DNA of 40,772 bases from a virus. Lineage: Duplodnaviria; Heunggongvirae; Uroviricota; Caudoviricetes. This document shows, one piece after another, positions 1,826 through 23,984 of the stretch. The position numbers were made by a program, and so were the translations under genes. The stretch's first letter is position 1. Every line of letters begins with the position of its first letter. Under the pieces are notes generated by a model, which did no database searches, had not been told where the DNA came from, and saw nothing but the letters and a program-made list of their open reading frames with translations. The stretch lies in the IMG/VR virus record IMGVR_UViG_3300028456_000002, positions 1-40,772 of that record, one strand, 5' to 3'.

Positions 1826-5226
<3,401 letters not shown>

Positions 5227-20168: not shown

Positions 20169-20337
20169 ACCCGCTCCAGAATGTTTTAAACATGCATCTT
20201 GCGAACAACTTTAGGCAAACGGTGTTAGTGATGAACAAAAAACAATCAAAATCGACACCATTAAAATAAAATAACTGTAATATCAATGCATTACAGTAGT
20301 GGTGATGACGAATGAAATTTCAAAAACTAGCCTTTTT

Positions 20338-20359
20338 CCGCGACGCTCCCGCCCCGTGG
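20338..20359 (-). other. cos site (cosN-like cohesive end region)
   Basis: Minus strand reads ...CCACGGGGCGGGAGCGTCGCGGAAAAAGG..., closely resembling the lambda cos core (GGGCGGCGACCTCGCGG, recalled from memory); about 180 bp upstream of the small terminase gene. Confidence 0.55.
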
Positions 20360-20468
20360 CAAGGGTACCCCACCGGGAGGACCCGCAAAATGAGAGCGAT
20401 TATCATTTGTACACACTCTAACACCTGCATTATCGCAGCCCCTCGCTGAAGGGCTGCTGTAATGCATG

Positions 20469-20765
20469 TTACTCAGTAACAACTGCGCCTTCCGGTAATT
20501 CCATACCGGCAAATACCGGACAACCAGGATGACGATCATCTTCTGTTGCTTCCAGCATTGACTCACCAAACCACTCCGTCGTGGCGCGACCATCAGCAGC
20601 TTTGTAGTGGAGTAAGTACTGGTTTTCGCCATCCGCATACTGCGCGCGGGCTTTAACCTCACCCCATTCATCACTGATGCGCATCTCCACCAGTTGAGAC
20701 AACTCAAACTTAAACGGGACAGTAGCGGCACCAATTACAATCGGTTTGTTTTTTGTTGTTTCCAT
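20469..20765 (-). CDS. Hypothetical protein between lysis genes and cos
   Basis: ORF 20469..20816; likely start METTKNKPIVIG...; no recognisable motif. Confidence 0.45.
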   Translation of the reverse strand: METTKNKPIVIGAATVPFKFELSQLVEMRISDEWGEVKARAQYADGENQYLLHYKAADGRATTEWFGESMLEATEDDRHPGCPVFAGMELPEGAVVTE

Positions 20766-20939
20766 CATCGTCTCCTGATATCGAAGCCCGTCGCCGCACC
20801 GGGCACTGATCAACATTTGAGTATTCGCGGCGACAGAAAGAATTTATTTTATTGAGTAGCCACAAAAACAGAATTTCATGCTTTCCGGACGCTGACGCAT
20901 CCTTCATTTTTCAGCAAAATATTCTGCTCTTATAGGCGA

Positions 20940-21122
20940 TCAGTTCTGCAGACACTGCCGAACACCGTCGACAATTTCACAGACCTGAGAAGCTGTATCG
21001 AAAAGCTGGCGCGCCTTATCCAGACTGACGCATCCCACCAGAAAAAAAGGCACCAGTATCGCTACCAGTGCCCATTTCGCCGCCGTTCGCGGCATTCTGT
21101 GCGTCCAGTGTTTTCTGCTCAT
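20940..21122 (-). CDS. Small lipoprotein, possible spanin-related
   Basis: Start taken at MSRKHWTHRMPRTAAKWALVAILVPFFLVGC, with an LVGC lipobox; immediately downstream of the endolysin. Confidence 0.5.
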   Translation of the reverse strand: MSRKHWTHRMPRTAAKWALVAILVPFFLVGCVSLDKARQLFDTASQVCEIVDGVRQCLQN

Positions 21123-21136
21123 AACACACCTGGTTA

Positions 21137-21520
21137 TCAGCGTTTCAACTGAAAGTGAGGCCCGTCTTTCAGTGTTTTCCAGTCCCCGCCCCATTCGATG
21201 GCAGTCCCCAGCTCTGCGGCAGCCTGTTTAAATGCCTGCGCGATTTTCTCGTACAGAGGCCAGTCCCATGACACCTGGCTGCCAATGTAGGCCACAACAT
21301 CCACCGCATCACCGGTCAGGTGGCGGCTGTTCATGGTCTGGCTTTTCCCTTCCGCGACCAGCTGTTTCTGGCGATACTTACTGCGCAGGCCTTCCGTAAT
21401 ACCGAAATCAACCTCCGTCAGCTCCAGCGCACGGCGAACGACAGCAACCAGCTGTGGTTTGACGCCCTCCAAATTTTTTTCACTGCGACGGCTGAATCTG
21501 AATTTACCCGGCATATTCAC
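21137..21520 (-). CDS. Endolysin, peptidase M15 (D-Ala-D-Ala carboxypeptidase-like)
   Basis: 127 aa with ...SRHLTGDAVDVV... zinc-peptidase motif. Confidence 0.8.
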   Translation of the reverse strand: MNMPGKFRFSRRSEKNLEGVKPQLVAVVRRALELTEVDFGITEGLRSKYRQKQLVAEGKSQTMNSRHLTGDAVDVVAYIGSQVSWDWPLYEKIAQAFKQAAAELGTAIEWGGDWKTLKDGPHFQLKR

Positions 21521-21792
21521 CTCAACAATGGAAAGATTTTTATGACGTTCCCGCGTGCGCGTATCACCAGCACGCAGAACAGCAGATTAAAAAACACTTC
21601 CAGCCAGCCCGTTGCTAACGGGCGACCACACAGATAGCTGAGTGGAGCAAAGCCATAAAGCAGCATCAGCAGCCAGGCCAGCCATGACATCAGCGGTTTG
21701 TGTCTGGAGTCACGGCGACGATAAAAAAAGAGCGTCAGCACGATAACCGTGCATAACGCCACATTCAGCAATCCGGGAAAGTTACTTAACAT
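21517..21792 (-). CDS. Small membrane protein in lysis cassette (second holin or antiholin candidate)
   Basis: Start taken at MLSNFPGLLNVALCTVIVLTLFFY...; three hydrophobic segments; between holin candidate and endolysin. Confidence 0.45.
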   Translation of the reverse strand: MLSNFPGLLNVALCTVIVLTLFFYRRRDSRHKPLMSWLAWLLMLLYGFAPLSYLCGRPLATGWLEVFFNLLFCVLVIRARGNVIKIFPLLR

Positions 21793-22174
21793 TGCCGCCT
21801 CCTCCGCCACGCAGACGGGAGAACAGGCCGGACACCAGTGATGCAATATCCTGCTGGTGGATGAATGACAGAATCTTCACCGACACCACTGACACCAGTA
21901 CTGCACACAATGCGTCAACAGGTGCACCGTCAAACCCTGTATGCTTTACCAGCCAGGATGCCAGAACCTCTGCGCCCAGCACGCCGATAATGAACGACAC
22001 CAGAAAATGCGCCGCCACACGCCAGGCTGAAAGCGCCTGCGGCATCGTTGCCACAAATAACGCCCCGGCGAACGCACCAAACACAATCCCGAAATCCGTT
22101 CCGGTAAACAGCCCGAATACCGTCGCCCCGCCGAGCGCCGCAGCCGTGCCGGAACCGGATAAGGGTTCAGACAT
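21782..22174 (-). CDS. Putative holin
   Basis: 130 aa with three hydrophobic helices, Gly-rich C-terminus; first gene of the lysis cassette with AGGAGA ribosome-binding site. Confidence 0.5.
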   Translation of the reverse strand: MSEPLSGSGTAAALGGATVFGLFTGTDFGIVFGAFAGALFVATMPQALSAWRVAAHFLVSFIIGVLGAEVLASWLVKHTGFDGAPVDALCAVLVSVVSVKILSFIHQQDIASLVSGLFSRLRGGGGGNVK

Positions 22175-22191
22175 ACTTTTTTCTCCTGTAA

Positions 22192-22215
22192 ATAAAAAAG
22201 GGCCACCAGCGGCCC
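22192..22215 (-). terminator. Rho-independent terminator immediately upstream of the holin gene
   Basis: Minus strand GGGCC-GCTGGT-GGCCC followed by TTTTTTATTT. Confidence 0.6.
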
Positions 22216-22348
22216 GTAATAAAACACCCCGTCAAAGGCACCCGCCGATGTCTTTTATGTGATGTATTCAGATTCAATACACGTTGAGTAAAGCGCAGAT
22301 ATGAAAAAGGCCCGCCGCAGCGAACAATAAAGAAACGAAATTCTGAAT

Positions 22349-22372
22349 AAAAAAAACCGCCAGATACGGCGG
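22349..22372 (-). terminator. Rho-independent terminator downstream of the tRNA pair
   Basis: Minus strand CCGCC-GTATCT-GGCGG followed by T8. Confidence 0.65.
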
Positions 22373-22734
22373 TTGGTCAATGCAAGAGATACATTCTTAA
22401 TTGTAATAAAACCGAGGTGTCGGGTGCCTCCCGAAGTATTCCGTCCTGTATGAATACTGTGGTTTCCCGCTAAACCGACTCTTTTAACCACCCTCGCCCT
22501 GAGGAGCGCCCCGATGGTGTTATTTACAACACCAGAATGATACATCACCGACCCTGCCAGGAAATACAAAATCTCCACCAGCAATGCACCATTCTGCTGC
22601 CGTAAAAAAATCAGCACTGAAGCTAACCTGGCCTCAAATCATAGCCAGAGAACAGAATGCTTTTTCAAAACAACCTGCTCCCACGTAATAAAAATACGCC
22701 AGTGCTGCAATACAATAAGGCTTATTTCAAATGC

Positions 22735-22809
<75 letters not shown>

Positions 22810-22812
22810 ATA

Positions 22813-22888
<76 letters not shown>

Positions 22889-22940
22889 ATTGGTTCCTCA
22901 GGAAAAATAAAAATGACCGCGCTTTACATCCCCCTTGGAA

Positions 22941-22968
22941 CCGAAAAAGAATATTAATGAGGACAGAC
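22941..22968 (-). promoter_or_regulatory. Candidate sigma70 promoter for the tRNA pair
   Basis: Minus strand TTGAAA, 16-17 nt spacer, TAATAT, about 45 nt upstream of the tRNA-Thr 5' end, AT-rich upstream region. Confidence 0.4.
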
Positions 22969-23057
22969 ACTTTTTCAATTAAAAACCGTGTCAATATTCG
23001 TAAATATATGTATAGATTTCCATTATTTATGAAATTCAGAAATAATGACACGCACAT

Positions 23058-23984
23058 TTAACGATTATTTTTTATTTCAATTACAGTCTGATTAAATCTC
23101 TCTTCTTCCAGCTCCACACCTATTGCACGCCTTCCCAGCGATAATGCTGCCTTTATTGTTGACCCCGACCCCATAAAAAAATCAGCAACCAAATCTCCCG
23201 GATGGCTGCTGGTAGTAATTATCTGACGCAACATATCCGCCGGTTTCTCACAGGGATGTTTGCCGGGGTAATACTGCACAGGTTTGTGCGTCCAGACATC
23301 TGTATACGGAACGGCAGCCGATACGGAAAAATAACGCCGCAGAGATTTGTACTCATCCAGCAGACTGGCATATTGCCGGTTCAGTTCACTGTATGTGCTG
23401 ACCAGCTGGTGGTGTGGCTTTTCCAGTTCACCGCGCTGATGTTTTTCTGCTGCAACACGCGCAAACAACGCCTGTAATTTCAGATAATCGCCTTCGTTCG
23501 GCAACTGCCACTGACTGATACCAAACCAGTGCGAAGCCATGTTTTTCTTTCCGGTGGCTTCCGCTATCTGTTTTGACGTTATTCCCAGTGATTCACGCGC
23601 ATCACGAAAGTAAGAAATCAGCGGAGCCATCACGTGCTGCTTAAGCTCGCGCCCCTTTGCCGCATAGCCGTCATTTTTGGGCTGGTATGGCCCCTGATAA
23701 TGTTCTGCAAACAGAATGCGTTCTGTTGCCGGAAAATACGCTCGCAGACTTTCCTTGTTGCACCCGTTCCAGCGCCCGGACGGCTTCGCCCAGATAATGT
23801 GGTTCAGCACATTAAAGCGTTCACGCATCATGATTTCGGTGTCAGATGCCAGGCGATGACCACAGAACAGGTAAAGACTTCCGGCAGGCTTCAGTACCCG
23901 CCAGAATTGCGCCAGACACTGGTCCAGCCATTTCAGGTAATCATCGTCGCCCTTCCACTGGTTATCCCAGCCCTCGGGCTTCAC
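23058..23984 (-). CDS. DNA methyltransferase (N6-adenine/N4-cytosine type); annotated ORF lacks the catalytic N-terminus because of a frameshift
   Basis: 308 aa ORF from a GTG. The same frame is open upstream to 24089 and encodes KYPVVELINADCLEFIQTLPENSVDLIVTDPPYF (DPPY motif). An ATG at 24105 (MINTVK) is in another frame; the A5 run GTAAAAATAT would join them if it were A4. Confidence 0.8.
   Translation of the reverse strand: MKPEGWDNQWKGDDDYLKWLDQCLAQFWRVLKPAGSLYLFCGHRLASDTEIMMRERFNVLNHIIWAKPSGRWNGCNKESLRAYFPATERILFAEHYQGPYQPKNDGYAAKGRELKQHVMAPLISYFRDARESLGITSKQIAEATGKKNMASHWFGISQWQLPNEGDYLKLQALFARVAAEKHQRGELEKPHHQLVSTYSELNRQYASLLDEYKSLRRYFSVSAAVPYTDVWTHKPVQYYPGKHPCEKPADMLRQIITTSSHPGDLVADFFMGSGSTIKAALSLGRRAIGVELEEERFNQTVIEIKNNR

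Follow-up and report, generated by a model that had tools for sequence, protein, structure and literature searches.

The 60-residue lipoprotein encoded at the end of a phage lysis cassette may be an outer-membrane, third-step lysis protein that acts without an inner-membrane partner. The cassette lies in a 40,772-nucleotide stretch of Caudoviricetes DNA (IMG/VR record IMGVR_UViG_3300028456_000002, analysed over its whole 40.8 kb and called the window below). From gene order, family conservation and the predicted protein, we put the probability of this reading at roughly one half. The lysis cassette consists of four close-packed minus-strand genes within 20940-22174, encoding two holin-like membrane proteins (A and B), a soluble M15 endolysin and the lipoprotein. 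The lipoprotein gene is real, conserved and under purifying selection. Its product has already been catalogued as the outer-membrane subunit (o-spanin) of a spanin; its status as a stand-alone module, which our comparisons indicate, would be new. An initial annotation of the window had described two small three-helix membrane proteins ahead of an M15 endolysin, followed by a 60-amino-acid (aa) lipoprotein with the lipobox LVGC and no recognisable inner-membrane spanin subunit (i-spanin) in any frame. It had also suggested that the spanin function might be supplied either by a single component or by one of the upstream membrane proteins. The description was borne out by the analysis reported here; comparative genomics favoured the single component and disfavoured the upstream membrane proteins.

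The lipoprotein gene and its translation signal are placed as follows:
20940..21122, minus strand: prolipoprotein gene, 60 aa, 183 bp, stop codon at 20942..20940; matches phrog_7528 (E=1.9e-37).
21127..21131, minus strand: Shine-Dalgarno-like AGGTG, 4 nt before the lipoprotein ATG.

The product is MSRKHWTHRMPRTAAKWALVAILVPFFLVG followed by CVSLDKARQLFDTASQVCEIVDGVRQCLQN. Residues 1-30 (21122..21033) form a signal peptide, Cys31 (21032..21030) is the lipobox Cys, and the mature part is 30 aa long. The signal is that of an o-spanin, with Val at +2 after the lipobox Cys and no inner-membrane retention residue, and this Val predicts sorting to the outer membrane. The AGGTG motif sits in a 14-nt spacer between the endolysin stop codon (21139..21137) and the lipoprotein ATG. 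In the program-made list of open reading frames (ORFs) the gene appears as an 84-aa ORF, which adds an upstream extension overlapping the endolysin; phrog_7528 matched residues 25-84 of this long ORF over its full length (profile positions 1-60 of 60). The 60-aa form is taken to be the real one because relatives with another endolysin start at the same Met via an ATGA overlap. The second Met is not a conserved alternative start, since position 10 varies (M, V, I or T). Within the gene, in the codons for the invariant signal-peptide core WALVAILVPFF, an 11-bp hairpin runs into seven T's (GGGCACTGGTAGCGATACTGGTGCCTTTTTTT; 21048-21073, minus strand) and scores as an intrinsic terminator. Such an element could halt leaky transcription in the lysogen, or could constrain this unusually conserved signal peptide at the RNA level as well.

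AlphaFold2 (AF2) gave a single helix over residues 12-59 with moderate confidence (predicted local distance difference test score, pLDDT, 71). The helical hydrophobic moment of the mature part was 1.37, versus 0.57±0.29 in shuffled sequences, with a 3-4 spacing of hydrophobic residues and no Pro; three K+R and four D+E residues give a net charge of -1. No hydrophobic segment was found after Cys31, which is followed by 29 residues: the only such segment spans residues 13-36 and belongs to the signal peptide. Two further Cys, C48 and C57, are nine residues apart and would lie on opposite faces of a straight helix. The helix may therefore break at the conserved Asp-Gly between them, or the Cys may form intermolecular bonds. 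The C-x8-C spacing was kept in most distant members of the family, and the two Cys could form either inter- or intramolecular bonds.

We recovered 140 homologues of the lipoprotein; in an aligned subset of 24, the lipobox Cys and C48 never varied and C57 was almost invariant. The ratio of nonsynonymous to synonymous polymorphism (pN/pS), taken over 48 distinct gene sequences, was 0.21 overall, with similar values for the basic n-region (0.19), the hydrophobic core (0.19) and the mature part (0.22). Intact genes of 60 codons made up 85 of 96 copies, nine more differed only by length or small indels, and two were broken: a pseudogene in the Stx2 prophage GER2 (locus L093) and a rearranged copy (L037). 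In the latter, from IMG/VR, unrelated sequence stands in place of the mature part after ...DKARQ (3501-3680). Together, the full-length match to phrog_7528, the 140 homologues and the pN/pS of 0.21 exclude a chance ORF.

The family is a small one that does not extend beyond Enterobacteriaceae. When 1.84 billion cluster representatives were searched exhaustively with an HMMER profile, only 24 clusters (50% identity) came back. The diverged small clusters that we inspected mostly retained the lipobox and C-x8-C, for example ...LVGCVSLEKARNWFGVAADVCDTVKKIKDRCNDRK, and by eye the lipobox and the two Cys persisted down to roughly 30-40% identity. The idea that remote relatives are ordinary o-spanins was rejected, as the inspected clusters were all of the same small lipoprotein kind. 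Searches of Pfam, NCBIfam and PDB sequences with the lipoprotein and the family profile gave nothing meaningful. In Escherichia coli the gene is common: it matched 352 of 5426 complete genomes, and it is present in Stx2e-converting phiP27-type phages. About 35 of the matching records held only a diverged, unannotated copy (60-80% identity), and the three of these that were checked were all pseudogenes. Some E. coli complete genomes carry up to seven copies of the gene, which points to several P27-type or related prophages per chromosome.

The lack of a partner was examined by six-frame scans. The lipoprotein was the only lipobox ORF in the whole window. An i-spanin ORF that the initial annotation might have missed was looked for in every frame of the cassette and of the window, whether embedded, overlapping or nearby, and none was found. 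The scan asked for an N-terminal transmembrane domain (TMD) and a tail of at least 45 residues; in the window its one real hit was a Lom-like outer-membrane protein, picked up by its signal peptide, the rest being off-frame noise. Applied to 102 loci, the same heuristic picked out Rz in three control loci only, and nothing beside intact copies of the lipoprotein.

A partner has nevertheless been proposed for phiP27, which Kongari et al. 2018 (PMC6139136) class among the "separated" two-component spanins. They assign it a 64-aa i-spanin (20348..20542) and a 51-aa o-spanin (20706..20861; 30 mature residues, 83% helix). The o-spanin of this entry is the lipoprotein studied here, called from its second Met. 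The 64-aa ORF was rejected as a general partner: it starts with TTG, has no PHROG or Pfam match, is missing from the window and runs antisense to a 90-aa ATG ORF with a full-length match to phrog_36812 (E=5e-20). Both ORFs lie in an insert of ~470 bp between endolysin and lipoprotein in phiP27 (L001 3660-4044), which holds a 43-aa forward ORF and the 90-aa reverse ORF. Only about five surveyed loci carry this insert, and it is absent from the window, where it would fall between 21137 and 21122. Because of the TTG start, the missing family match, the antisense position and the rarity of the insert, the published pairing is probably spurious, and irrelevant to the window.

The two holin-like proteins were rejected as inner-membrane partners, and with them the earlier suggestion that an upstream membrane protein might serve as the spanin. 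The lipoprotein follows a lambda-S-type holin in the absence of both proteins (L009, L100), and both occur with an ordinary spanin in HK639 and mEp390. The small single-TMD ORFs found in relatives were likewise rejected as required partners, being absent from the window and also preceding Rz.

The case for a lysis function comes from about 100 loci encoding the lipoprotein family, drawn from bacterial genomes (one per species), IMG/VR, GenBank phages and metagenome assemblies. Throughout these loci the lipoprotein was the last gene of the lysis cassette, placed after the endolysin, and in about half it abutted or overlapped the endolysin gene (14-18 nt spacer or ATGA overlap). The genes ahead of it varied: holin_8 and holin_3_7 with M15; the same holin pair with a GH108/PG_binding_3 muramidase; a lambda-S-type holin with GH108 (Lelliottia, L009); and a lambda-S-type holin with M15 behind the Q antiterminator (L100). 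So did the modules downstream, which included Terminase_4/TerL, Terminase_2, lambda GpA and Mu-like phage genes (GemA, Mor, Mu portal), the phages concerned being lambdoid, P27-like and Mu-like. Since the lipoprotein stays with the endolysin while all else swaps, it behaves as a lysis gene and not as the partner of a given holin or tail.

The position that the lipoprotein holds is that of Rz/Rz1. In HK639 and mEp390 the same holin_8 and holin_3_7 pair is followed by a lysozyme and then, at the lipoprotein position, by an overlapped spanin pair (91-aa i-spanin and lipoprotein o-spanin). A 37-aa membrane ORF (MKGIEVETPASLDLTRAAAFAIR...RWW) has Rz as its next gene in Stx2 phages and the lipoprotein as its next gene in many of the P27-like loci (~38 of ~100 surveyed), and the junction after it is identical in both cases (TGGTGGTGAyATGAAyCG). 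A 44-aa membrane ORF likewise precedes either Rz or the lipoprotein. Because the same 37-aa ORF and the same junction precede either, Rz/Rz1 and the lipoprotein are alternative fillings of one slot. Furthermore, Stx2 prophages with S-R-Rz (GER2, E. coli O104:H4 and others) retain the lipoprotein gene as a copy with four in-frame stops, ~750 bp downstream of Rz. These fossil copies are unannotated and lie between S-R-Rz and the terminase (L093 3001-3168; L106 and L107 3001-3175), with the same four stops in all three. Decay of the lipoprotein beside Rz would fit redundancy.

Two families of tiny single-TMD ORFs, one of 37 aa (MKGIEVET...RWW) and one of 43-44 aa (MSDSIIKLARIL...), lie directly upstream of Rz or the lipoprotein in many cassettes (L003 4067-4180, L023 3386-3499, L093 1669-1782, L036 3198-3496, L107 1649-1780). 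Both are uncharacterised and recur in the lysis cassettes of E. coli prophages; the window has neither.

We infer outer-membrane disruption by the lipoprotein, and its route, from these comparisons. In the proposed sequence of events, late transcription would lead to all four cassette proteins being made together. Late expression of the lipoprotein is expected because the cassette has no promoter of its own, terminators lie upstream of the holin gene and the Shine-Dalgarno motif comes right after the endolysin stop. The holin-type proteins would make the inner membrane permeable, letting out the soluble M15 endopeptidase, which would degrade the murein. Meanwhile the lipoprotein would have been exported, acquired its lipid at Cys31 and been sorted to the outer membrane's inner leaflet, where its amphipathic, disulfide-capable helix of 30 residues would wait. 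Once the wall was gone and turgor pressed the inner against the outer membrane, the helix could destabilise the outer membrane or fuse the two. One possible route is direct bridging and fusion with the apposed inner membrane, a one-sided version of spanin fusion. Another is perturbation of outer-membrane lipid packing, as by the colicin-release lipoproteins, which activate the outer-membrane phospholipase PldA.

The remaining genes of the cassette are those expected for the earlier steps of lysis:
21782..22174, minus strand: holin-like A, 130 aa, Phage_holin_8, first gene of the cassette; PF16931 (E=1.2e-22) and phrog_198 "holin" (E=8e-43).
21517..21792, minus strand: holin-like B, 91 aa from MLSNF, Phage_holin_3_7; PF05449 "putative 3TM holin" (E=4.9e-22) and phrog_217 (E=6e-38).
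21137..21514, minus strand: soluble endolysin, 125 aa, M15 L-Ala-D-Glu endopeptidase; PF13539 Peptidase_M15_4 (E=1.6e-12) and phrog_465 (E=2e-75).

These three genes form a holin-endolysin cassette: the matches to PF16931, PF05449 and PF13539 were all above the curated cut-offs, and the genes are adjacent and co-oriented. As first annotated, each membrane protein has three strongly hydrophobic segments, which in holin-like A span residues 27-45, 51-76 and 83-106 and come with a Gly/Ala-rich N-terminal stretch. The start of holin-like B overlaps the end of gene A by 11 nt. In the endolysin, hydropathy revealed no transmembrane or signal-anchor-release (SAR) segment. Its relatives in the PDB were an M15C-domain protein (23ri, 1.4e-43), an L-Ala-D-Glu endopeptidase (8q2g, 5e-43), Serratia ChiX (5opz, 9e-43) and the T5 endolysin (2mxz, 2e-23). 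ChiX is the peptidoglycan L-Ala-D-Glu endopeptidase of a holin-dependent protein secretion system. In a porcine Shiga toxin-producing E. coli, a 130-aa "putative holin" was needed for antibiotic-induced (fluoroquinolone) extracellular release of Stx2e, which its deletion abolished (PMC12571312). As read from the cloning primers, the first residues (MSEPLSG) and the C-terminal GGNVK of that holin are identical to those of holin-like A. Cassettes of this type may thus serve toxin release besides phage release, given the closeness of the endolysin to ChiX and the loss of extracellular Stx2e upon deletion of the holin orthologue. Toxin genes of another kind were seen in SerU-LTIIb (L005 3771-5197) and Rac-SA53 (L099 3826-5056), where the LT-II genes stand directly after the endolysin.

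The window as a whole is a nearly complete phiP27-like prophage without stx genes. Phage phiP27, like prophages of several hundred E. coli genomes, matches it with 95% identity over 1.9 kb around the cassette. Upstream of the cassette lie the following features:
22200..22374, minus strand: three terminator-like hairpins, upstream of the first holin gene.
22735..22888, minus strand: tRNA-Thr and tRNA-Gly genes, between a DNA methylase gene and the lysis cassette.

No sigma-70-like promoter was found in 20200..22700, and the hairpins upstream of the holin gene are consistent with the leader of a late operon under antitermination read-through. Terminase genes lie downstream of the cassette. In phiP27 the stretch between methylase and holin holds two tRNA genes (Ile, Arg) and then stx2eAB, whereas the corresponding part of the window (22200-23060) holds tRNA-Thr and tRNA-Gly and no toxin genes.

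Several points weigh against a partnerless outer-membrane lysis protein. At ~4.5 nm, a 30-residue helix is too short for the periplasm, so that the spanin mechanism is not simply transferable. The mature part, unlike the disruptin, is not cationic, and beyond the signal peptide it shares no sequence with colicin lysis proteins. PHROGs labels phrog_7528 "unknown function", Pfam and NCBIfam hold no model of the family, and the function proposed for the whole family rests on comparative genomics. The pseudogene in Stx2 phages reflects a single inherited event and not several. The junction between endolysin and lipoprotein also collects morons, being often interrupted by variable unrelated genes such as Ant and KilA-N. 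Finally, LT-II prophages carry the same holin pair and a GH108-type endolysin with neither the lipoprotein nor a spanin. In the literature we found no experimentally characterised lone o-spanin or partnerless lysis lipoprotein.

The collecting of morons bears on what is the most serious alternative, although we consider it unlikely: that the protein is a lipoprotein of the outer membrane, expressed late, whose function is unrelated to lysis and which stands after the lysis genes by coincidence. It might mask the phage receptor in the manner of T5 Llp or Cor, sparing progeny from being wasted on debris, mediate superinfection exclusion or serve as some other moron. T5 Llp and Cor are known examples of receptor-blocking small phage lipoproteins with a disulfide, and the region after the endolysin hosts accessory genes (Ant, KilA-N, the LT-II toxin genes and a gene for a lipopolysaccharide-core heptose(II)-phosphate phosphatase). 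However, the lipoprotein keeps its place behind the endolysin while the packaging modules change from Terminase_4/TerL to Terminase_2, GpA or Mu-like genes. This suggests that the virion modules have been exchanged as well, and with them probably the receptors; a mask for the receptor would be expected to follow the tail genes. Translational coupling to the endolysin (ATGA overlap or 14-nt spacer), the absence of a promoter that could serve the lysogen and decay of the gene in phages with Rz/Rz1 also argue against a role outside lysis. It seems quite unlikely that the lipoprotein is an o-spanin half whose partner (a host protein, or a phage membrane protein of very small size or atypical orientation) went unrecognised. 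The listing of the lipoprotein as the phiP27 o-spanin with a 64-aa i-spanin (PMC6139136) speaks for such a partner, as do the 37-60-aa single-TMD ORFs directly upstream of the lipoprotein in many relatives and the resemblance of its two conserved periplasmic Cys to the disulfide-forming Cys of spanins. Yet the 64-aa ORF has the defects set out above, and the small transmembrane ORFs are lacking in the window, as they are in about half of the loci. That they also precede Rz in Stx2 phages means that they are not substitutes for Rz. Moreover, the window has no type-II membrane ORF, and neither the tiny transmembrane proteins nor a 30-aa lipopeptide could bridge the periplasm.

Very unlikely, in our view, is an accessory or regulatory role, in which the lipoprotein would tune the timing of lysis or the activity of endolysin or holin, in phages without a dedicated outer-membrane step. 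Extra small lysis factors with unexpected roles do exist, such as Lcc6 in Shewanella LambdaSo, and some phages appear to manage without spanins. A lipopeptide sorted to the outer membrane, however, is in a poor position to influence holins of the inner membrane or an endolysin that is soluble, and its positional exchange with Rz/Rz1 points to the outer-membrane step. In E. coli, lambda requires its spanins when divalent cations stabilise the outer membrane (the Rz/Rz1 phenotype). Outer-membrane disruption is described as a required last step for most phages (Kongari 2018, PMC6139136). That the gene is a decaying, functionless remnant of a former spanin pair is scarcely credible: there is a decayed copy in Stx2 phages and the family is tiny, but pN/pS stays near 0.2 along the whole gene, very few copies are broken, and the lipobox and both Cys outlast most of the sequence identity. 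These considerations leave the partnerless outer-membrane lysis protein as the reading we favour.

Such a protein would bear on how phages without a recognisable spanin cross the outer membrane. In the survey of Kongari et al. (PMC6139136), no spanin was found in about 13% of the genomes analysed, and 31 genomes had a lipoprotein with no linked i-spanin. The present family offers a clean test case that is common in E. coli. If the lipoprotein works alone, it would be the smallest known outer-membrane-lysis lipoprotein and a candidate tool for the controlled release of periplasmic or cytoplasmic products.

Among the nearest known systems is the phiP27 lysis region itself (L28-L30 plus the unannotated lipoprotein ORF), which has the same four genes at 95% DNA identity over the cassette and differs from the window by the ~470-bp insert between endolysin and lipoprotein and by stx2e upstream of the gene for the holin. 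With o-spanins of two-component systems (lambda Rz1, T4 PseT.2, the HK639/mEp390 pair) the protein shares the nature of an outer-membrane lipoprotein at the distal end of the cassette, periplasmic Cys and exactly the Rz/Rz1 slot of related cassettes. In contrast to them, it comes without a cognate i-spanin gene in the window. In lambda Rz1, 10 of 40 aa are Pro and secondary structure is undetectable, whereas the 30-aa mature part here has no Pro and is predicted to be all helix. No spanin family in PHROGs, Pfam or NCBIfam matched the lipoprotein. The unimolecular spanin T1 gp11 is likewise encoded by one gene that closes a lysis cassette, and its N-terminus likewise carries an outer-membrane lipoprotein signal; it possesses, however, a C-terminal inner-membrane TMD and a periplasm-spanning domain, and the lipoprotein has neither.

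The colicin-release lipoproteins, or bacteriocin release proteins (Lysis_col), are similar in build: precursors of 44-49 aa and mature forms of 27-33 aa, against 60 and 30 aa here, with an LV[GA]C-type lipobox and a place as the last gene of an induced operon for release of cell contents. They differ in having no extra Cys and in not being predicted amphipathic helices. None of 24 family members matched PF02402 Lysis_col (mature motif QANYIRDVQGGT) at E<=10. Homology beyond the signal peptide was rejected because hhalign against six colicin lysis proteins aligned only 15 signal-peptide columns (probability 28%); the resemblance is architectural only. The disruptin phiKT gp28 is not known to have a lipoprotein signal, whereas the protein here has a lipobox. 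The disruptin is likewise a single small protein that replaces the spanin in a spanin-less phage, but it is described as cationic and antimicrobial-peptide-like (bioRxiv 10.1101/515445), in contrast to a mature part of net charge -1 here. The lipoprotein is thus neither a unimolecular spanin, having no C-terminal TMD, nor a disruptin, being lipobox-bearing and not cationic. We tentatively propose, with somewhat less assurance than for a partnerless outer-membrane lysis protein as such, that a 30-residue, disulfide-capable, amphipathic outer-membrane lipopeptide alone breaches the outer membrane. It would be interchangeable with Rz/Rz1 and would represent a third class beside spanins and disruptin, with a mechanism perhaps nearer to that of the colicin-release lipoproteins than to that of the membrane-fusing spanins.

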